In this document: positions 1 through 7,812 of the stretch, piece after piece
Position numbering within the stretch: the first letter of the stretch is position 1
Layout: each line of letters opens with the position of its first letter
Source: a virus
Lineage: Duplodnaviria; Heunggongvirae; Uroviricota; Caudoviricetes
Length of the DNA: 7,812 nt
IMG/VR virus record: IMGVR_UViG_2724679140_000010
Location: 1-7,812 of that record
Strand: one strand, 5' to 3'
Position numbers and translations under genes: made by a program
The notes under the pieces: generated by a model
Database searches by the model: none
Seen by the model: only the letters and a program-made list of their open reading frames with translations
What the model was told of the DNA's origin: nothing

Positions 1-154
1 AACTTAACTGATATCCCTTTTTACGGATAAAGGTATTCAAGCCTGACACATCATGCGCTGTATCGTCGTCGTATTCCCGTATTAACAGAGACCGTAGCCC
101 GACGGGGAACTCCTTCTGCGCGAGTGTGCGGTAATAATCAAAAACGATGCGCAC
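1..154 (-). CDS. Possible 5' part of a minus-strand ORF running off the window start (hypothetical protein); start codon uncertain
   Basis: Reverse-complement frame is open for 49+ codons from the window edge, bounded upstream by a stop (TTA on + strand at 161-163). N-terminal translation is (V)RIVFDYYRTLAQKEFPVGLRSLLIREYDDDTAHDVSGLNTFIRKKGYQLS. Only a GTG start (+152-154) is available and there is no Shine-Dalgarno. An open frame of this length has roughly a 10% chance of arising by chance. Confidence 0.2.
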   Translation of the reverse strand, partial: MRIVFDYYRTLAQKEFPVGLRSLLIREYDDDTAHDVSGLNTFIRKKGYQLS

Positions 155-189
155 CGGGTTTTAGTGTGCTGACGGACGCAGGTTTACCC

Positions 190-669
190 TCATAGTCGCT
201 TTTCCGGTGCGATGGTGGAAGAAACCGGAATAATGAATTGTGAATGCAAAATGTGGTTTCTTACTGAGTAATACTGGCAGTGTTTTCTGTTTACATCCAG
301 AACATATTTAAAGATGCCTGCACGGGAAAGAGTAAAGTGGCTCCGGAAGAAGGGTATGTTTCCGGATAAATGTTTTTTTATAACCAGTTTTGTCCAGATA
401 TTATTTGACCTGTGGTTTATATAAGCAGATCTTTTTTGGGGCTGTACCGTGATCATACTTTGATTATGTGTGGTAAACCTTATATTCCCTGTTGACAGAA
501 AGTAAAAACAATGCGAGATGCCATTTTTATTAAGGTAATCAGTAACGGAAATAATATCATTATCGTGTGATGAAATAAGCAACGATATAACAGAGGTTAG
601 CCGACTATTCTCTGTGGAAACACAATCTGGTGGTGATAAATCTGAATGAGTTATGTAAAAATTGAACAT
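190..669 (-). CDS. Hypothetical 159-aa ORF in the AT-rich right-end region; doubtful as a real gene
   Basis: A 480-nt open frame is statistically unusual in ~35% GC DNA. However, the translation is Ser/His/Asn/Ile/Thr-rich with almost no Glu or Ala, there is no Shine-Dalgarno before the ATG at 669, and I recognise no family. Confidence 0.2.
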   Translation of the reverse strand: MFNFYITHSDLSPPDCVSTENSRLTSVISLLISSHDNDIISVTDYLNKNGISHCFYFLSTGNIRFTTHNQSMITVQPQKRSAYINHRSNNIWTKLVIKKHLSGNIPFFRSHFTLSRAGIFKYVLDVNRKHCQYYSVRNHILHSQFIIPVSSTIAPEKRL

Positions 670-1077
670 GTAAAAAGATGGTGTTTAACTGAAGGTATAG
701 TACTGCTGGAAAATAATAAACTGAAAAGTGAATGTCTATTAGTTATTTCCGCATGGTAAATCAGAGGTATTGTTTTCTTGCTAATTTATTAAAGTGATAA
801 GTCTTATCTTGATTTTAGATATAAACTTTTATCAGGCCTTATCAACTTACATCTTCAGTATTGGAGGCAGTGCCAGTTACGTAAGGACGCAATGCCTGGT
901 ATTTAAGCGAAGTGATCGACTGGATAAATAATATTCCTCGCGCTTCTGAATGTTGCCGTGTTCCTGTGCCAAAAAAGCCAGATGTGCACTATGCCTCAAT
1001 ATTGAGCGTGTACGCCGTAATGCACGGGATGGCCGCTATAAGCTGATTGGTTGATGAATTTAGGCCCGCTCTGGCTG

Positions 1078-1092
1078 GCGGGTCCTTTCCGG
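1078..1092. other. cosQ-like element (packaging termination signal) about 30 bp upstream of cosN
   Basis: GGGTCCTTTCCGG lies about 20-30 bp upstream of cosN. As I recall, lambda has the same sequence at the same position in its right end (...ACGGGTCCTTTCCGGTGATCCGACAGGTTACG). Confidence 0.5.
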
Positions 1093-1109
1093 CGATCCGG
1101 CAGGTTACG

Positions 1110-1121
1110 GGGCGGCGACCT
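1110..1121. other. cosN: 12-nt cohesive-end sequence GGGCGGCGACCT, the terminase nicking site
   Basis: Exact match to the lambda 12-nt cohesive end, preceded by CAGGTTACG (lambda right-end terminus) and followed by CGCGGGTTTTCGCTATTTATGAAAATTTTCCGG (lambda left-end start). It sits about 185 bp upstream of the terminase small subunit gene, as in lambda. Confidence 0.85.
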
Positions 1122-1154
1122 CGCGGGTTTTCGCTATTTATGAAAATTTTCCGG

Positions 1155-1270
1155 GATCCATGTCCGGTTTCTCTTCAGGTTAACTATATGAAAAATATAG
1201 AAACAGGTTTTCTGTGAACCGGACGTGAACAAAAAATAAACATGTAAGCCGGACATGACCGGTTTTGTTG
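1155..1270. promoter_or_regulatory. cosB-like region: three candidate small-terminase binding repeats around an AT-rich, IHF-site-like segment
   Basis: The motif GTCCGGTTT and variants occur at 1162-1170 (forward), 1218-1225 (reverse, AACCGGAC), 1250-1256 (reverse, GCCGGAC) and 1258-1266 (forward, GACCGGTTT). They are spaced about 50, 110 and 150 bp downstream of cosN, mirroring the lambda R3/I1/R2/R1 layout. An AT-rich segment at 1176-1210 contains the inverted repeat CTATAT-gaaaa-ATATAG. Exact site boundaries are not determinable from sequence alone. Confidence 0.5.
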
Positions 1271-1304
1271 TGATTGTGAGGTGAGAGTTTTTGCGAGGTG
1301 AGGA

Positions 1305-1814
1305 GTGGCTACGCAGACTGAAGTTGCCAGGCATTTAAGTCTGACCGATCGCCAGCTTCGCAGATTGCAGAAATTGCCGGGTGCCCCGATATCGAATAAG
1401 CGAGGGCAACTGGATCTGGATGCCTGGCGCGATTTTTACATATCGTATCTGAGGAGAAGTAAAAACGATGTGCCTGGTGGCGATAGCGAAGACGACTATG
1501 AGGAGAAATTGCTTATTGCCAGATGGGAACTGACAGCAGAACAGGCTGTTACACAGCAGTTAAAAAATGAGGTGTCAAAAGGAAAACTTATTGACACCGG
1601 GTTCTGTATTTTTGCCCTCAGTAAGCTGGCAATGGCGTTATCCAGTACGCTTGATTCCATCCCTTTATCCATGCAGCGACAGTTTCCTGATTTAACACCG
1701 CGCCATCTTGACCATCTGAAAACCCTTATTGCGAAGGGGGCAAATCAGTGTGCGCGGGCGGGGGATAAATTACCGGATTTACTCGATGAATATATCAGAG
1801 CAACAACTGAATAA
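1305..1814 (+). CDS. nu1: Terminase small subunit (lambda Nu1-like), 169 aa, GTG start
   Basis: C-terminal half (…TGFCIFALSKLAMALSSTLDSIPLSMQRQFPDLTPRHLDHLK…LPDLLDEYI) resembles lambda gpNu1 as I recall it. The N-terminus has a helix-turn-helix-like segment (TQTEVARHLSLTDRQLRRL) but differs from lambda. GTG at 1305 has GAGG 6 nt upstream and an in-frame stop immediately upstream. It sits between cos and the large terminase gene. Confidence 0.88.
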   Translation: MATQTEVARHLSLTDRQLRRLQKLPGAPISNKRGQLDLDAWRDFYISYLRRSKNDVPGGDSEDDYEEKLLIARWELTAEQAVTQQLKNEVSKGKLIDTGFCIFALSKLAMALSSTLDSIPLSMQRQFPDLTPRHLDHLKTLIAKGANQCARAGDKLPDLLDEYIRATTE

Positions 1815-3714
1815 TATGATGAGCGCTGTCACAACAGCATTACAGCCCCTGATAAGGGCATTGCCGGTGACGCCAGTTGAATGGGCTGATCAAAATTATT
1901 ATCTGCCGAAAGAATCTTCATATGGTGAGGGAGAATGGAAAACGCTGCCATTCCAGATCGCCATCATGAACAGCATGGGGAATGATCAGATCCGCACTGT
2001 TAATCTGATTAAATCTGCCCGTGTTGGCTATACAAAGATGTTGCTGGGGGTGGTCGGATATTTTATTGAGCATAAATCCCGAAACAGTCTGCTTTTTCAG
2101 CCCACGGATTCTGCCGCTGAAGATTTTATGAAGTCTCACGTGGAGGCGACGATTCGGGACGTGCCATGCCTGAAAGACCTTTCCCCATGGCTGGGTCGTA
2201 AACATCGTGACAATACTCTCACGCTGAAACGCTTTTCATCGGGTGTGGGCTTCTGGTGCCTGGGCGGCGCTGCCGCCAAAAACTACCGTGAAAAATCCGT
2301 GGACGTGGTCTGCTATGACGAACTTTCCTCGTTCGAGCCGGATGTCGAAAAAGAGGGCTCGCCAACCCTGCTGGGGGATAAGCGTATTGAGGGCTCTGTA
2401 TGGCCAAAATCCATTCGCGGCTCGACGCCTAAAATCAAAGGCTCCTGCCAGATCGAAAAAGCCGCTAACGAGTCGGCACATTTCATGCGTTTTTATGTGC
2501 CCTGTCCGCACTGTGGGGAGGAGCAGTATCTGAAATTTGGCGATGATGCCTCGCTTTTCGGTCTTAAGTGGGAGAAGAATAAGCCAGAAAGTGTTTTCTA
2601 CCTTTGTGAGCATCATGGCTGTGTGATCCATCAGTCTGAGCTTGAACAGAATAACGGGCGGTGGATCTGTGAAAACACGGGCATGTGGACACGTGACGGC
2701 CTGACATTTTACAGCGCGGGTGATGAGGAGATGCCGCCACCGCGATCCATCACTTTCCACATCTGGACGGCCTATAGCCCGTTTACCACCTGGGTACAGA
2801 TAGTCTATGACTGGCTGGATGCGCTGAAAGATCCCAACGGCCTGAAAACCTTTGTGAACACCACGCTGGGCGAGACCTGGGAAGAGGCCGTGGGCGAAAA
2901 ACTCGATCACCAGGTTCTGATGGATAAGGTCGTGCATTACACGGCGGCGGTACCTGACCGGGTGGTTTATCTGACGGCGGGCATTGACTCGCAGCGAAAC
3001 CGTTTTGAGATGTATGTCTGGGGATGGGCACCGGGAGAGGAAGCTTTTCTGGTGGATAAAATCATCATTATGGGGCGTCCTGATGAGGAAGAGACGCTGT
3101 TACGTGTGGACGCGGTGATTAACAAAAAATACCGCCATGCGGATGGCACCGAAATGACTATTTCCCGTGTCTGCTGGGACACCGGGGGGATCGATGGCGA
3201 AATCGTTTACCAGAGGTCAAAAAAACACGGTGTTTTCCGTGTGCTACCGGTAAAAGGTGCGTCTGTCTATGGCAAGCCGGTGATCACCATGCCGAAAACC
3301 CGCAATCAGCGGGGCGTGTATCTGTGTGAAGTGGGGACGGACACCGCAAAAGAAATTCTCTATGCCCGTATGAAAGCCAGTCCCACACCTGCAGATGAAG
3401 CCACATCGTATGCCATCCGTTTTCCTGATAATCCGGAGATTTTTTCGCAGACAGAGGCGCAGCAACTGGTCGCGGAAGAGCTTGTGGAGAAGTGGGAAAA
3501 AGGAAAGATGCGCCTGCTGTGGGATAACAAAAAGCGGCGTAACGAAGCGCTGGACTGCCTGGTGTATGCCTACGCAGCATTACGTGTGTCCGTGCAACGC
3601 TGGCAGCTTGATCTGGCTGTACTGGCAAAATCCCGGGAAGAAGAGACGACCCGGCCAACCCTTGAAGAACTGGCAGCGAAGCTGTCCGGAGGAGTGAATG
3701 GTAACAGTCGCTGA
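1786..3714 (+). CDS. A: Terminase large subunit (lambda gpA-like), 642 aa
   Basis: Matches lambda gpA along its length as recalled: MNIS… start, conserved NYYLPKE segment, Walker-A-like KSARVGYT, CPHCGEEQYLKFGD, TAYSPFTTWVQIV, FVNTTLGETWE, LTAGIDSQ, KKRRNEALDC. Start placed at the ATG giving MNISEQQ (19 codons inside the longer ORF in the track). Overlaps the nu1 3' end by 29 nt. Confidence 0.95.
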   Translation: MNISEQQLNNMMSAVTTALQPLIRALPVTPVEWADQNYYLPKESSYGEGEWKTLPFQIAIMNSMGNDQIRTVNLIKSARVGYTKMLLGVVGYFIEHKSRNSLLFQPTDSAAEDFMKSHVEATIRDVPCLKDLSPWLGRKHRDNTLTLKRFSSGVGFWCLGGAAAKNYREKSVDVVCYDELSSFEPDVEKEGSPTLLGDKRIEGSVWPKSIRGSTPKIKGSCQIEKAANESAHFMRFYVPCPHCGEEQYLKFGDDASLFGLKWEKNKPESVFYLCEHHGCVIHQSELEQNNGRWICENTGMWTRDGLTFYSAGDEEMPPPRSITFHIWTAYSPFTTWVQIVYDWLDALKDPNGLKTFVNTTLGETWEEAVGEKLDHQVLMDKVVHYTAAVPDRVVYLTAGIDSQRNRFEMYVWGWAPGEEAFLVDKIIIMGRPDEEETLLRVDAVINKKYRHADGTEMTISRVCWDTGGIDGEIVYQRSKKHGVFRVLPVKGASVYGKPVITMPKTRNQRGVYLCEVGTDTAKEILYARMKASPTPADEATSYAIRFPDNPEIFSQTEAQQLVAEELVEKWEKGKMRLLWDNKKRRNEALDCLVYAYAALRVSVQRWQLDLAVLAKSREEETTRPTLEELAAKLSGGVNGNSR

Positions 3715-3901
3715 ACTGCAGGCGCTGCGTCAGGCGCGTCTTGATTTATTAACCGGTAAACGGGTGGTGTCGGTCCAGAAAGATGGTCGCAGAATTGAAT
3801 ATACGGCAGCCTCTCTGGATGAGCTTAATCGTGCTATCAATGATGCGGAGTCGGTACTGGGGACAACCCGCCGCCGTCGCCCGCTGGGAGTGAGGTTATG
3901 A
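3698..3901 (+). CDS. W: Head-tail joining / head completion protein (lambda gpW-like), 67 aa
   Basis: The sequence …LTGKRVVSVQKDGRRIEYTAASLDELNRAI…TRRRRP resembles lambda gpW (68 aa) as recalled. GGAGG lies upstream of the ATG. Stop overlaps the B start as ATGA. Confidence 0.88.
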   Translation: MVTVAELQALRQARLDLLTGKRVVSVQKDGRRIEYTAASLDELNRAINDAESVLGTTRRRRPLGVRL

Positions 3902-5490
3902 AACGAACGCCAGTCCTGATTGATGTGAACGGCGTTCCGCTTCGTGAGAGTCTCAGCTACAACGGGGGCGGCGCAGGATTTGGCGGGCAAATGGCCGAGT
4001 GGTTACCACCGGCGCAGGGTGTTGATGCTGCCCTGCTGCCTGCGTTGCGTCTGGGGAATGCCCGTGCAGATGATCTGGTACGCAATAACGGTATAGCGGC
4101 CAATGCGGTGGCCCTGCATAAGGATCACATTGTCGGGCACATGTTTCTTATTAGTTACCGTCCGAACTGGCGCTGGCTTGGGATGCGGGAGTCCGCGGCA
4201 AAAATCTTTGTCGATGAGGTGGAGGCGGCCTGGTCGGAATACGCGGAAGGAATGTTTGGCGAGATCGATGTGGAAGGGAAACGCACCTTTACGGAATTTA
4301 TCCGTGAAGGTGTGGGCGTTCATGCATTTAACGGTGAAATCTTTGTGCAGCCGGTCTGGGATACGGAAACCACACGGTTATTCCGCACGCGTTTTAAAGC
4401 CGTGAGCCCTAAACGGGTGGACACGCCGGGACACGGTATGGGTAACCGTTTCCTGCGGGCCGGGGTGGAAGTCGATCGGTATGGACGGGCCGTTGCGTAC
4501 CATATCTGTGAGGATGATTTTCCGTTCTCTGGTCGTGGACGATGGGAACGGATCCCGCGTGAACTTCCCACCGGGCGTCCGGCCATGCTGCATATTTTCG
4601 AGCCGGTTGAGGACGGGCAGACCCGTGGGGCTAATCAGTTTTACAGCGTCATGGAACGGCTGAAAATGCTCGATTCCCTGCAGACCACGCAGCTTCAGTC
4701 GGCCATAGTGAAGGCGATGTATGCAGCGACGATTGAAAGTGAACTCGATACCGAAAAGGCCTTTGAATATATCGCGGGTGCACCGCAGAGTCAGCAGGAT
4801 AATCCGCTCATTAATATTCTGGAGAAGTTCACCCGCTGGTATGACACGAATAACGTGACGCTGGGCGGTGTCAAAATTCCGCACCTTTTCCCCGGGGATG
4901 ATTTGAAACTGCAGACTGCGCAGGATTCAGATAATGGATTTTCTGCGCTTGAACAGGCGCTGCTGCGGTATATCGCCGCCGGTCTTGGTGTTTCCTACGA
5001 ACAGTTGTCCCGTGATTACTCGAAGGTCAGTTACTCAAGTGCCCGTGCCTCAGCCAATGAGTCGTGGCGTTATTTTATGGGGCGACGAAAATTTATTGCG
5101 TCCCGGCTGGCCACGCAGATGTTTTCCTGCTGGCTGGAAGAGGCGCTTCTTCGGGGGATTATTCGTCCGCCACGGGCGCGTTTTGATTTTTATCAGGCGC
5201 GTTCAGCCTGGTCACGGGCAGAGTGGATTGGCTCCGGAAGAATGGCCATTGATGGACTCAAGGAGGTTCAGGAGTCGGTGATGCGCATTGAGGCCGGACT
5301 GAGCACGTATGAGAAAGAGCTGGCGCTGATGGGTGAGGATTATCAGGACATTTTCCGCCAGCAGGTCAGGGAATCTGCAGAGCGGGAAAAAGCCGGGCTC
5401 TCACGCCCGGTGTGGATAGCGCAGGCGTATCAGCAGCAGATAGCGGAGAGTCGCAGGCCGGAAGAGGAGACAACACCACGTGAGACGTAA
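3898..5490 (+). CDS. B: Portal protein (lambda gpB-like), 530 aa
   Basis: Size (530 aa vs lambda 533) and position immediately after W, translationally coupled via ATGA overlap, fit a lambda-type portal. The long ORF has coherent codon usage. Confidence 0.9.
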   Translation: MKRTPVLIDVNGVPLRESLSYNGGGAGFGGQMAEWLPPAQGVDAALLPALRLGNARADDLVRNNGIAANAVALHKDHIVGHMFLISYRPNWRWLGMRESAAKIFVDEVEAAWSEYAEGMFGEIDVEGKRTFTEFIREGVGVHAFNGEIFVQPVWDTETTRLFRTRFKAVSPKRVDTPGHGMGNRFLRAGVEVDRYGRAVAYHICEDDFPFSGRGRWERIPRELPTGRPAMLHIFEPVEDGQTRGANQFYSVMERLKMLDSLQTTQLQSAIVKAMYAATIESELDTEKAFEYIAGAPQSQQDNPLINILEKFTRWYDTNNVTLGGVKIPHLFPGDDLKLQTAQDSDNGFSALEQALLRYIAAGLGVSYEQLSRDYSKVSYSSARASANESWRYFMGRRKFIASRLATQMFSCWLEEALLRGIIRPPRARFDFYQARSAWSRAEWIGSGRMAIDGLKEVQESVMRIEAGLSTYEKELALMGEDYQDIFRQQVRESAEREKAGLSRPVWIAQAYQQQIAESRRPEEETTPRET

Positions 5491-6985
5491 TCTTTCACAC
5501 ATTATTGCAGCAGCATTCAATGAACCGCTGCTTCTGGAGCCCGCCTATGCGCGGGTTTTCTTTTGCGCGCTGGGGCGTGAGATGGGTGCGACAAGTCTTT
5601 CGGTACCGCAACAGCAGGTACAGCTTGATGCTCCCGGGATGCTGGCTGAAACGGACGAGTACATGGCCGGAGGAAAACGACCGGCCCGTGTTTACAGGGT
5701 GGTGAATGGTATTGCTGTACTGCCGGTGACAGGCACGCTGGTGCACCGGCTGGGGGGGATGCGGCCATTTTCCGGAATGACAGGTTATGACGGCATTGTC
5801 GCCTGTCTTCAGCAGGCAATGTCGGATACCCAGGTGCGGGGTGTACTGCTGGATATTGACAGCCCTGGTGGGCAGGCCGCCGGCGCGTTTGACTGCGCTG
5901 ACATGATTTACCGCCTCCGGCAGCAGAAGCCTGTCTGGGCGCTGTGCAATGACACGGCCTGTTCTGCCGCAATGCTGCTGGCATCGGCCTGTTCCCGACG
6001 GCTGATTACCCAGACATCACGTATCGGCTCCATTGGTGTGATGATGAGCCATGTCAGCTATGCCGGTCATCTGGCGCAGGCCGGTGTTGATATCACGCTT
6101 ATTTACGCCGGATCGCACAAGGTGGATGGCAATCAGTTTGAATCCCTGCCGTCAGAGGTTCGCCAGGACATGCAGCAGCGCATTGATGCGGCGCGCCGGA
6201 TGTTTGCTGAAAAAGTGGCGATGTATACCGGTTTATCTGTGGATACGGTTATGGGGACAGAGGCCGCTGTTTTTGAAGGGCAGTCAGGTATTGAGGCCGG
6301 GCTGGCGGATGAATTAATCAATGCGTCGGATGCCATCAGCGTGATGGCCGCGACGCTGAACACACATGATACAGGAGGCACTATGCCGCAATTAACTGCA
6401 ACGGAAGCCGTCGCGCAGGAGAACCAGCGAGTGATGGGGATCCTGACATGCCAGGAAGCGAAAGGACGTGAACAGCTTGCCTCGATGCTGGCAGGACAAC
6501 AGGGCATGAGCGTTGAGCAGGCCCGGGCGATTCTGGCAGCGGCGGCACCGCAGCAGCCGGAGGCATCCCCGCTGAGTGAAGCCGATCGCATTATGGCGTG
6601 TGAAGAAGCGAAAGGTCGTGAACAACTGGCTGCAACGCTGGCGGCGATGCCGGATATGACAGTGGAAAAAGCCCGCCCGATCCTGGCTGCTTCACCACGG
6701 GCGGATGCCGGACTATCACTCCGTGATCAAATCATGGCCCTGGATGAGGCGAAAGGGGCTGAGGCGCAGGCTGAAAAACTGGCGGCCTGCCCGGGGATGT
6801 CCGTGGAGAATGCCCGGGCTGTACTGGCTGCTGCATCAGGTAAAGCTGAACCAGTCTCTGCCTCCACGACATCCATGTTTGAACGTTTCATGGCGAACCA
6901 TTCACCGGCAGCGGTGCAGGGCGGCATGTCACAAACGTCAGCAGACGGTGATGCGGACGTAAAAATGCTCATGGCCATGCCATAA
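5480..6985 (+). CDS. C: Prohead protease / scaffold fusion protein (lambda gpC-like, S49-type serine peptidase domain), 501 aa, GTG start
   Basis: N-terminus NLSHIIAAAFNEPLLLEPAYARVFFCAL and the segments GMTGYDGIVACLQQA, AGAFDCADMI, KPVWALCNDTACSAAMLLASA, IGVMMSHV, ITLIYAGSHKVDGN resemble lambda gpC as recalled. GTG at 5480 is preceded by GAGGAGA and overlaps the B stop by 11 nt. Confidence 0.88.
   Translation: MRRNLSHIIAAAFNEPLLLEPAYARVFFCALGREMGATSLSVPQQQVQLDAPGMLAETDEYMAGGKRPARVYRVVNGIAVLPVTGTLVHRLGGMRPFSGMTGYDGIVACLQQAMSDTQVRGVLLDIDSPGGQAAGAFDCADMIYRLRQQKPVWALCNDTACSAAMLLASACSRRLITQTSRIGSIGVMMSHVSYAGHLAQAGVDITLIYAGSHKVDGNQFESLPSEVRQDMQQRIDAARRMFAEKVAMYTGLSVDTVMGTEAAVFEGQSGIEAGLADELINASDAISVMAATLNTHDTGGTMPQLTATEAVAQENQRVMGILTCQEAKGREQLASMLAGQQGMSVEQARAILAAAAPQQPEASPLSEADRIMACEEAKGREQLAATLAAMPDMTVEKARPILAASPRADAGLSLRDQIMALDEAKGAEAQAEKLAACPGMSVENARAVLAAASGKAEPVSASTTSMFERFMANHSPAAVQGGMSQTSADGDADVKMLMAMP
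6383..6985 (+). CDS. nu3: Candidate nested in-frame scaffolding protein (lambda Nu3-like), 200 aa, sharing frame and stop with C
   Basis: In-frame ATG at 6383 (C residue 302, MPQLTATEAV…) is preceded by a perfect AGGAGG at 6373-6378 with 4-nt spacing. In lambda, nu3 is translated in-frame from within C. The exact start is an inference. Confidence 0.5.
   Translation: MPQLTATEAVAQENQRVMGILTCQEAKGREQLASMLAGQQGMSVEQARAILAAAAPQQPEASPLSEADRIMACEEAKGREQLAATLAAMPDMTVEKARPILAASPRADAGLSLRDQIMALDEAKGAEAQAEKLAACPGMSVENARAVLAAASGKAEPVSASTTSMFERFMANHSPAAVQGGMSQTSADGDADVKMLMAMP
6437..6860 (+). repeat. Three tandem in-frame repeats (~141-150 nt, ~47-50 aa each) within the C/Nu3 coding region
   Basis: Peptide units are RVMGILTCQEAKGREQLASMLAGQQGMSVEQARAILAAAAPQ, RIMACEEAKGREQLAATLAAMPDMTVEKARPILAASPRADAG and QIMALDEAKGAEAQAEKLAACPGMSVENARAVLAAASGKAE. 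The DNA anchor GAAGCGAAAGG is at 6455 and 6605, and GAGGCGAAAGG at 6746. Units have diverged at the DNA level, so the duplication is not recent. Confidence 0.75.
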
Positions 6986-7021
6986 AGCCACTGCTGATCA
7001 TCAATATGAGGTTTTAATAAT

Positions 7022-7369
7022 ATGGTAACGAAAACCATCACTGAACAGCGTGCGGAAGTACGTATTTTTTCCGGTAATGATCCGGCTCATACAGCCACAG
7101 GTAGCAGCGGGATTTCCTCGGCGACACCGGCTCTGACGCCTCTGATGCTGGATGAGGCCACCGGGAAACTGGTGGTCTGGGACGGACAGAAAGCCGGTGG
7201 TGCGGTTGGCATACTGGTACTGCCGCTTGAAGGCACAGAGACGGTACTGACGTATTACAAGTCGGGGACTTTTGCGACGGAGGCAATTCACTGGCCTGAG
7301 AGTGTGGATGAACACAAAAAGGCCAACGCCTTTTCCGGCAGTGCCCTGAGTCATGCGGCGCTGCCGTAA
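7022..7369 (+). CDS. D: Head decoration protein (lambda gpD-like), 115 aa
   Basis: The segments NDPAHTAT, TPLMLD, KLVVWDG, AVGIL and YYKSGTF resemble lambda gpD (110 aa) as recalled. GAGG lies about 10 nt upstream of the ATG. Position between C and E matches lambda. Confidence 0.9.
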   Translation: MVTKTITEQRAEVRIFSGNDPAHTATGSSGISSATPALTPLMLDEATGKLVVWDGQKAGGAVGILVLPLEGTETVLTYYKSGTFATEAIHWPESVDEHKKANAFSGSALSHAALP

Positions 7370-7377
7370 CACATTAT

Positions 7378-7397
7378 CAGGCCACTGCGGTGGCCTG
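7378..7397 (+). terminator. GC-rich stem-loop in the D-E intergenic region (possible partial terminator or RNA-stability element)
   Basis: CAGGCCAC-tgcg-GTGGCCTG forms a perfect 8-bp stem with a 4-nt loop, 9 nt after the D stop, followed by ACTTATTTCTG (T-rich but not a clean U-tract). Confidence 0.35.
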
Positions 7398-7425
7398 ACT
7401 TATTTCTGAATGAAGGAACTGATTT

Positions 7426-7812
7426 ATGGGATTGTTTACGACCCGCCAGTTGCTCGGTTATACCGAACAAAAAGTTAAATTTCGTGCGCTGTTTCTGGAG
7501 CTGTTTTTCCGCCGTACGGTGAATTTCCAGACCGAAGAGGTGATGCTGGACAAAATTACCGGAAAAACGCCGGTGGCGGCCTATGTCTCCCCGGTTGTTG
7601 AAGGAAAAGTGCTGCGTCATCGTGGTGGTGAAACCCGCGTGTTGCGTCCGGGCTACGTCAAGCCGAAACACGAATTTAATTACCAGCAGGCGGTTGAGCG
7701 CCTTCCTGGTGAAGATCCATCTCAACTGAACGATCCGGCTTACCGCCGTCTGCGTATCATTACCGATAACCTCAAACAGGAAGAGCACGCGATTGTCCAG
7801 GTGGAAGAAATG
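7426..7812 (+). CDS. E: Major capsid protein (lambda gpE-like), N-terminal 129 codons; continues past the window end
   Basis: MGLFTTRQLLGYTEQKVKF…LFLELFFRR…AAYVSPVV…RPGYVKPKHE…NDPAYRRLRII…VQVEEM resembles the lambda gpE N-terminus as recalled. AGGA lies 8 nt upstream of the ATG at 7426. The frame is open to the window edge. Confidence 0.93.
   Translation, partial: MGLFTTRQLLGYTEQKVKFRALFLELFFRRTVNFQTEEVMLDKITGKTPVAAYVSPVVEGKVLRHRGGETRVLRPGYVKPKHEFNYQQAVERLPGEDPSQLNDPAYRRLRIITDNLKQEEHAIVQVEEM

Follow-up and report, generated by a model that had tools for sequence, protein, structure and literature searches.

Which terminase reads the cohesive-end site (cos) found in a 7,812-nucleotide stretch of caudoviral DNA (positions 1 to 7,812 of IMG/VR record IMGVR_UViG_2724679140_000010; "the window" hereafter means this whole stretch)? 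An intact cos junction in a lambdoid prophage is textbook and serves mainly annotation, where it marks the genome ends and a complete packaging module, and for lambda, 21 and N15/Monarch packaging specificity is already understood. The cosB segment and the small terminase subunit (TerS) of the window are nevertheless a pair distinct in sequence from these three. Positions 1080-1265 probably form a functional cos of a lambda-like temperate phage located at Rac/ttcA of E. coli, and we propose that this cos is read by the phage's own divergent TerS with a distinct initiation specificity. An earlier note on this DNA had described an intact cosQ-cosN-cosB between 1078 and 1270, and its claims are taken up below with the results that bear on them.

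The cosQ-cosN core

We aligned the window with lambda (NC_001416, 48473-48502 joined to bp 1-45) and found 73 identities over the 75 gapless positions of 1080-1154, a segment that consists of GGGTCCTTTCCGGCGATCCGGCAGGTTACG, GGGCGGCGACCT and CGCGGGTTTTCGCTATTTATGAAAATTTTCCGG in direct succession. Both mismatches (C for T at 1093 and G for A at 1100) fell in the spacer between cosQ and cosN. The similarity started sharply at cosQ and ended sharply after lambda bp 45 (window 1154); on this alignment, the window core and lambda are contiguously homologous, which is no chance match. The core comprises the following elements.

1080-1086, plus strand: cosQ, GGGTCCT, identical to lambda 48473-48479 and at the same 30-nt distance from the top-strand nick
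1087-1107, plus strand: cosQ-cosN spacer, with the two differences from lambda
1108-1123, no strand assigned: cosN core, made of CG, GGGCGGCGACCT and CG, 16 of 16 positions identical to lambda
1134-1150, plus strand: I2 block CTATTTATGAAAATTTT, identical to lambda bp 25-41 and lying between cosN and R3

The nonamer CAGGTTACG at 1101-1109 is directly followed by GGGCGGCGACCT at 1110-1121, which bears out the proposal of the earlier note that the right and left ends of the phage are contiguous here. By homology, nicks are predicted at 1109/1110 on the top strand and at 1121/1122 on the bottom strand, giving 12-nt 5' cohesive ends of sequence GGGCGGCGACCT. The note had named these same positions, which are indeed the lambda-homologous ones, and the alignment to lambda cos that it had suggested as a check revealed no critical cosQ or cosN base that differs from lambda.

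Wieczorek and Feiss (2001) reportedly gave the definition of cosQ as a 7-bp element. Among 33 unique related sequences from IMG/VR (59-94% identical), six of the seven cosQ positions and 16 of the 17 I2 positions were invariant, as compared to 3 of 21 in the cosQ-cosN spacer, the length of which was constant within 1 nt in the relatives examined. A cosQ of 7 bp and the conservation of I2 across lambda, 21 and N15 have both been described (PMC4669245). The window thus has the cosN identity together with the symmetric bases that flank the nicks, a cosQ ~30 bp upstream of the top-strand nick, a cosB laid out as R3, an IHF-like site and more R sites (IHF, integration host factor), and adjoining genes for a Nu1-type TerS and a gpA-type large terminase subunit (TerL). 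With all of the sequence-testable defining features present, the site is, as far as sequence tells, a member of the lambda-like cos family.

Two mechanically called open reading frames (ORFs), of 56 amino acids (1047-1217, plus strand) and 66 amino acids (1134-1334, minus strand), cross cos. Similar cos-spanning ORFs are labelled 'hypothetical protein' in several phage records, including PhiR12_1, and are most likely annotation artefacts.

The cosB segment and its putative R sites

After 1154, the sequence of the cosB part (1155-1265) was unrelated to lambda, 21 or N15. We identified in it four copies of CATGTCCGGTT, none of them departing from it at more than one position, at 1159-1169 (forward), 1217-1227 (reverse), 1247-1257 (reverse) and 1254-1264 (forward). 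This cluster of four copies in 106 nt compares with 0.23 expected by chance, and none of 200 shuffles of the 7.8-kb window reached four. No copy occurred elsewhere in the window, so the right limit of 1270 given by the earlier note holds. Its claim of an intact cosB also stands, with the amendment that this cosB is not of the lambda type, as both the set of R sites and the DNA-binding domain of the adjoining TerS are different. What the alignment to lambda can validate is therefore limited to cosQ and cosN. The elements of cosB are listed below.

1158-1171, plus strand: putative TerS site equivalent to R3, CCATGTCCGGTTTC, at cos bp 49-62, with the core TCCGGTT at bp 54-60
1181-1193, minus strand: candidate IHF site equivalent to I1, TTTCATATAGTTA, between R3 and R2, with an A-rich flank extending to ~1198
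1217-1227, minus strand: R2-equivalent, CACGTCCGGTT, at cos bp 108-118, inverted relative to R3
1247-1257, minus strand: R1-equivalent, CATGTCCGGCT, at cos bp 138-148, in the orientation of R2, unlike lambda R1
1254-1264, plus strand: R1b, the fourth copy, CATGACCGGTT, forward, overlapping R1 and forming with it an imperfect palindrome or weak hairpin

The equivalents of R3, I1 and R2 lay within 1-2 bp of the positions annotated in phage 21 and lambda. The R3-equivalent takes the position of lambda/21 R3 (bp 50-65) with a different sequence, and it was invariant in 10 divergent E. coli copies. IHF has the consensus WATCAANNNNTTR; the candidate I1, TAACTATATGAAA at cos bp 72-84, matched seven of its nine specified positions, which equals lambda I1, and lay 2 bp from the I1 of lambda and 21 (TAACTTAATGTTT and TAACTTTTTGTTT, respectively, at bp 74-86). 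The R2-equivalent sits where R2 of lambda and 21 lie (bp 107-122), and its core GAACCGGAC was invariant in relatives. The core of the R1-equivalent, CCGGACAT, was likewise invariant and marks the right edge of the homology with cos2, the second cos of a phage-inducible chromosomal island (PICI) described below.

We aligned ten copies from E. coli and phages, two of which (STEC306 and VL7S7) have other cohesive ends. All ten agreed throughout cosQ, CTATTTATGAAAATTTT, CCATGTCCGGTTTC, GTTAAC, GAACCGGAC and CCGGACAT, and the spacers varied. The 33 IMG/VR sequences gave the same pattern: cosQ, I2, I1 (15 of the 20 positions of 1179-1198) and the R2 and R1 cores were invariant or nearly so, with variable spacers, and the start of terS, unlike the non-coding cos elements, had no invariant position. 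The higher conservation of the R, I1 and I2 elements, as compared to the spacers and the start of terS, indicates that selection is ongoing. R1b did not share this conservation. It was not conserved in STEC306, VL7S7 or the PICI copies, and we therefore dropped it as a true R site; whether it has any function is doubtful.

A search of Rfam found no RNA family match at 800-1500, and a promoter scan around cos found nothing above background. Searching the literature for the motif as ATGTCCGGTT or AACCGGACAT returned only unrelated primer or construct matches.

The same cosQ and cosB were also seen joined to other cohesive ends, such as GGGGTCATAGCACGCG, GGGGCGGGAGCGGC and GGGGCGTCGACC (STEC306 221-300, VL7S7 319-400 and 4 of the 44 related IMG/VR loci), indicating that the cosN and cosB modules recombine independently. 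A locus of Escherichia ruysiae (1300-1950 of the stretch examined) has GGTTCTT as cosQ, an altered cohesive end and the R3 variant CATTTCCGGTTT, and its terS is apparently interrupted by a stop after three codons. It appears to be a decayed copy of this type of cos.

The adjoining terminase

Directly downstream of cos are the two terminase genes.

1305-1814, plus strand: TerS, 169 amino acids with a GTG start (RefSeq annotation; Pfam Phage_Nu1)
1786-3714, plus strand: TerL of the gpA type (Pfam GpA_ATPase and GpA_nuclease), 66% identical to lambda gpA over 639 amino acids

A TerL this close to gpA fits an unchanged cosN, and on sequence grounds it is the enzyme expected to nick cosN. The Phage_Nu1 match of TerS, on the other hand, was confined to residues 50-150. 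When we compared TerS to the small subunits of lambda, 21, N15, phi80 and Gifsy-1 by tblastn, similarity was limited to the C-terminal two thirds, with the query starting at residues 57-73. Proteins matching TerS over its full length came from the PhiR12 phages (98.8%), from two phages of Aeromonas (32-36%) and from one of Vibrio (24%). In a profile comparison (hhalign), residues 5-167 were colinear with the lambda/21/N15 TerS proteins with a probability of 99.9, and DRQLRRLQK fell on the recognition helix of Nu1, with K23 opposite lambda E24. In Nu1 this helix spans residues 17-24, and E24 contacts bp 56 of R3 (PMC9026076). An AlphaFold2 model of TerS consisted of a strand, helices at 4-10 and 15-22, a loop, a strand and a helix at 38-54, with a predicted local distance difference test (pLDDT) score of 75-85 over residues 1-50. 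The order of these elements (strand, helix, turn, helix, wing, long helix) is that of a winged helix. We therefore regard the N-terminal ~55 residues, on the strength of the model, as a putative divergent winged helix-turn-helix, designated here the MATQxEVAxH type. A phmmer search of PDB sequences with TerS returned a lone chance match (E 0.74).

Comparison with known packaging systems

The window shares with lambda the cosQ, the cosQ-cosN spacing, the cosN 16-mer and I2, as well as the positions of R3, I1 and R2. The C-terminal two thirds of its TerS are ~46% identical to Nu1, and its TerL is the close relative of gpA noted above. It differs in the R sites, which are CGTTTCC(N)TTCT in lambda and CATGTCCGGTT in the window, and in R1, which is inverted and lies nearer to R2 by ~14-20 bp. 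A further difference is the DNA-binding domain of TerS; it has no BLAST-detectable similarity and a shorter wing, and its helix DRQLRRLQK places K23 at the position of E24.

Phage 21 (OL657228 annotation), which represents the classic alternative specificity, also has a tripartite cosB with an IHF site, and its R sites, TTTCATGTCGGNCCTT, share TCATGTC with the window sites, TCATGTCCGGYT. This shared stretch could reflect common ancestry or convergence. The window sites nevertheless have one extra C (GTCCGG vs GTCGG) and other flanks; the helix reads TDRQLRRLQK as opposed to DPRTIERWQS, and the tblastn match to gp1 covers residues 64-166 only, leaving no similarity in the N-terminal part. In N15/Monarch a single specificity occurs with both a 'simple' and a 'complex' cosB (PMC4669245), and the family to which the window belongs has a similar range, with a complex cosB in E. 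coli and a simple cosB of a single R3 in Pseudomonas-type prophages and phiARM81ld. However, N15 R3 is GAGGTTGTTGTT, a type of site absent from the window, and N15 gp1 matches window TerS at residues 57-164 only.

The closest phages are PhiR12_1 to PhiR12_5 (PV340549-PV340554), in which cos is 93.5% identical over window 1079-1400, TerS is 98.8% identical and all four repeats are present; the upstream lysis-region context is different. These genomes were deposited with K-12 and E. coli C as hosts, and our literature search found no paper describing them. We also considered the nohA/cos locus of the K-12 prophage Qin, since a gene name, 'prophage Qin DNA packaging protein Nu1-like', suggested the same type. 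This candidate was rejected because the cosB of Qin and the N-terminus of NohA are of the lambda type.

Distribution of the motif and the TerS domain

The cosB segment was present in 1184 of 5426 complete E. coli genomes, at a median of two places per genome. As that count could include PICI copies of cos2, we relied instead on the 1156 genomes (~21%) in which the match covers at least 80% of the query and reaches into terS. Carriers include O157:H7, E2348/69 and ATCC 25922. By contrast, only 5 of 50,697 records in a phage database had this cosB: 102 records share the cosQ-cosN core, and only these five extend into the window's cosB. The window's TerS was likewise found at 95% identity or above in five phage records, all of them PhiR12. 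The specificity appears to be very common and is probably undescribed, as the literature we searched contained no description of it.

Of 44 related loci in IMG/VR, 35 have a MATQxEVAxH TerS ~147 nt downstream, one is truncated and eight are satellites, while none of 76 chance matches to the 14-mer is followed by such a gene. Judged from this co-occurrence, the CATGTCCGGTT motif and the TerS N-terminal domain travel together.

Distant members of the TerS family, 34-44% identical over the full length, were found in Pseudomonas, a gammaproteobacterial metagenome-assembled genome (MAG), a Rhodospirillaceae MAG and the Aeromonas phage phiARM81ld. These relatives keep cosQ and a single TTCCGGTT at, or a few bases from, the R3 distance. 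In the Pseudomonas-type prophages and the Rhodospirillaceae MAG we observed a short 'simple' cos ~110 nt upstream of terS, in which cosQ is followed by a cosN region rich in GC and by one (C)TTCCGGTT(CC), with no IHF site and no R2 or R1. The (T)TCCGGTT of these sites lies 82-86 nt from the start of cosQ and ~20 nt before the terS ATG; the corresponding distance of the window core is 83 nt. The motif is slightly nearer, at 75-79 nt, in two Azospirillum-group loci whose match to TerS is limited to its N-terminal part. The phiARM81ld record starts with GGGCGTTAGACC (the GGGCG... end) and has GGGTCCT 30 nt from its end, with TTTCCGGTTCC at bp 54-64 and (T)TCCGGTT at bp 56-62.

The satellite cos2

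The eight satellite loci (L033, L035, L050, L051, L069, L095, L135 and L144) contain exactly the block from cosQ to R1 and then diverge, with no terS. They fall into two upstream contexts, L069 and L135 having one and the rest the other. The 10.7-kb contig of L095 encodes an integrase, an Ash-family protein, a D5-type primase, a single-stranded DNA-binding protein (SSB), a capsid protein of the lambda E type and a decoration protein of the D type, a gene content resembling that of Gram-negative PICIs, of which EcCICFT073 is the model. A 114-residue ORF at 9824-10168 of L095 was considered as an Rpp/TerS-like gene and rejected; it has no TerS-family similarity and looks spurious.

In strain CFT073 itself (NC_004431, 1385000-1430000; positions below are those of this stretch), EcCICFT073 has two cos sites on opposite strands. 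One, cos1 (2509-2700, plus strand), is directly upstream of an Rpp-like ORF (MIDKACFVSQQEIAEHFKVNRTT...), and the other, cos2 (3120-3360, minus strand), carries CCATGTCCGGTTTC, GAACCGGACATG and AACCGGACAT. Both are printed as cos1 and cos2 in Fig. S1 of Fillol-Salom et al. 2019 (PMC6739421). The cosB of cos2 has the type and layout of the window's, and is almost base for base that of PhiR12_1. In the window, the same block (CCATGTCCGGTTTC, then GTTAAC.ATATGAAAAATATA, then GAACCGGAC.TG and CCGGACAT) follows the lambda-type cosN, and the homology to cos2 runs from cosQ at its left edge to immediately after CCGGACAT. The two sites thus share the entire cosQ-cosN-R3-I1-R2-R1 block. In contrast to the window, cos2 is in a satellite with no adjoining terminase gene and in inverted orientation, with a different cosQ-cosN spacer and no R1b. 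Satellites that lack a terminase and keep only the segment from cosQ to R1 provide an independent delimitation of the functional cos, corresponding to window 1080-1257.

The published tests of cos2 were made with lambda and phi80 helpers only, with or without RppA (PMC6739421). In that study the RppA-TerS complex used the cosB of cos1 and not that of cos2, the two PICI cosB sequences were called 'completely divergent', and lambda and phi80 moved a plasmid bearing cos2 less well than one bearing their own cos. Within the literature we searched, cos2 is mentioned in two papers only (Fillol-Salom 2018 and 2019) and no protein that recognises it is reported, and the resident helper of CFT073, prophage 4, has a cosB of the phage-21 type (~39715 of the stretch). 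From the shared block we infer that cos2 probably arose by direct copying of the cosB on which MATQ-type terminases act.

The source prophage

The entire window was 100% identical to four mouse E. coli genomes, including M8 and IGC_EcoliInv_1.1, and 80% or more of its sequence is present in 1236 of the 5426 complete E. coli genomes. In IGC_EcoliInv_1.1 ('G2 mouse', Oeiras) the window lies within a prophage of the lambdoid kind that occupies the Rac locus. Upstream are RecE, ydaS/T/U/V, the lysis genes and a gene for a DUF1398 protein; downstream are the genes for TerS, TerL, the W-like protein, the portal, the S49 protease, the D-like protein, the major capsid protein and the tail, followed by uspF, ompN and nifJ. 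The element is therefore a prophage with an internal cos at Rac/ttcA, one of the possibilities raised in the earlier note. The complete cos-to-terminase layout claimed there was found as well, as every gene for packaging and the head that the window contains is intact, among them those for TerS, TerL, the W-like protein, the portal and the S49 protease.

KingRac, described by Frazão et al. 2019, is a 46.8-kb Rac-like prophage that replaced Rac at ttcA in a K-12 invader strain in mouse G2 (PMC6731689). It was reported to form particles, to lysogenise the K-12 invader and to re-transfer in a second cohort of mice (PMC6731689). We infer that the window prophage is KingRac. The suggestion of the earlier note that the element is potentially packaging-competent fits this work, with the identity taken as above, and also fits the PhiR12_1 to PhiR12_5 genomes with the same cos.

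The prophage also carries four tRNA genes (Ile, Arg, Thr and Gly) and hokD in its late-regulatory region (14092-14401 and 10973-11128 of the prophage stretch). Upstream of cos in the window are the DUF1398 (ydfO-like) gene (190-669, minus strand) and a frameshifted AlpA-family fragment (885-1054). In K-12 Qin, ydfO and ynfO occupy the equivalent place before the lambda-type cos and nohA, indicating that a pre-cos cargo slot is common to different cos types.

Alternative explanations

The near-identity of cosQ, cosN and I2 to lambda, along with the assignment of the downstream genes to the Nu1/gpA family by Pfam, could be taken to mean that cosB too is functionally that of lambda and that the lambda Nu1 terminase would initiate here. 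We consider this barely credible. There is no CGTTTCC(N)TTCT, the sequence is unrelated after lambda bp 45, the Phage_Nu1 match is limited to residues 50-150, and TerS has no tblastn similarity to Nu1, 21 gp1, N15 gp1 or phi80 TerS before residue 57. A true lambda-type cosB, such as that beside nohA in Qin, looks quite different, and lambda and phi80 handled a cosB of the window's type less well than their own (PMC6739421). Another reading accepts the CATGTCCGGTT repeats but assigns them to a different binding partner, such as a host protein or a regulator of late genes, or makes R1 and R1b a terminator, with TerS reading something else. R1 and R1b do match a weak terminator-like hairpin followed by T's (folding z-score -1.9), and the AlpA-family fragment lies just upstream. 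However, R1b, as one arm of the hairpin, lacks conservation in copies that conserve R1, and the motif stands at or near the R3 distance throughout the TerS family across genera, including the simple cos sites just before terS. It co-occurs with the TerS N-terminal domain in both the phage and the IMG/VR sets, in a layout of R3, I1 and R2 that copies the experimentally defined arrangement of lambda and 21. We therefore think this reading improbable.

There is also a small chance that the site is the relic of a decaying prophage, no longer cut or packaged. The prophage has several pseudogenes (DUF1627, lom, the AlpA fragment and others), and many of the E. coli copies reside in polylysogens, O157:H7 among them, that harbour several defective prophages. 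Against decay are the intact packaging and head genes, the unchanged critical bases of cosQ and cosN, the conservation of non-coding R, I1 and I2 over spacers and the start of terS, the repeated movement between strains reported in vivo (PMC6731689) and the near-identical cos and TerS of deposited phage genomes. Several observations nevertheless weigh against a functional cos with its own specificity. KingRac showed weak induction and no scorable plaques (PMC6731689), which also speaks for a relic. Its particle, as seen by electron microscopy, had a 99-nm head and a 249-nm tail (PMC6731689). These dimensions look excessive for a genome of 46.8 kb whose head genes are of the lambda E/D type and whose tape measure has 859 residues (27426-34426 of the prophage stretch); this misfit, another point for a relic, makes the particle evidence shaky, and the imaged particle may not be KingRac. 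The identification with KingRac itself relies on strain name, position at the Rac locus and gene content, as the paper states no accession. The PhiR12 records are not cos-oriented. Within cosB, the R2 and R1 of the window each have one minority substitution (in R2 a G at 1225, where the consensus is CATG), and the invariance of R3 in the 33-sequence set is uninformative, the R3 14-mer having been fixed by the IMG/VR search. Lastly, a Foldseek comparison of the full-length TerS model to the PDB gave only non-significant matches (all E >= 0.9), of which the top entries, the RacA DNA-binding domain, MerR-family regulators and 6hn7 (Rpp/TerS), are suggestive as a ranking only. Taken with the evidence above, these points leave a functional cos read by its own divergent TerS as the reading we favour.

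Proposed mechanism and implications

Under the favoured reading, the core at 1080-1150 (cosQ-cosN-I2), essentially that of lambda, would be the substrate of the gpA-type TerL. The cosB at 1158-1257 would follow the lambda layout, with R3 at about bp 50-62, an IHF-type bend, an inverted R2 and R1, and its CATGTCCGGTT-type R sites would be read by the N-terminal winged helix of TerS through a recognition helix at about residues 15-23, DRQLRRLQK. By analogy with lambda (PMC4669245, PMC9026076), the winged-helix domains of a TerS dimer would dock on R3 and the inverted R2 across the IHF bend at I1. The docked TerS would place TerL on cosN for nicking at 1109/1110 and 1121/1122, and packaging would run to the right, through the genes for the terminase and the head. 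Termination at the following cos would need no more than cosQ, cosN and I2, whatever the type of cosB. The cosB/TerS pair would thus define an initiation specificity apart from those of lambda, 21 and N15/Monarch and would be interchangeable with these for termination.

A broader proposal, for which we see the case as evenly balanced, is that the CATGTCCGGTT cosB and the MATQxEVAxH TerS constitute a fourth, undescribed lambda-like initiation specificity, among the commonest in E. coli prophages, and that this is the natural cognate of the 'orphan' cos2. It would give cos2 a testable role and explain the presence in EcCICFT073 of a second cos of which lambda and phi80 make hardly any use. If the proposal is true, each cos of an EcCICFT073-like PICI serves to exploit a different class of helper and does so by its own trick: cos1 together with Rpp re-programs TerS proteins of the lambda, 21 and phi80 types, while cos2 copies the cosB of KingRac/PhiR12-type phages and needs no Rpp.

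Packaging termination is independent of cosB (PMC4669245), and a cos of the window's type should therefore still stop other lambdoid terminases in polylysogens. Initiation, on the other hand, should be private to the cognate terminase. This distinction bears on any prediction of what is mobilised together, be it prophages, satellites or neighbouring host DNA.

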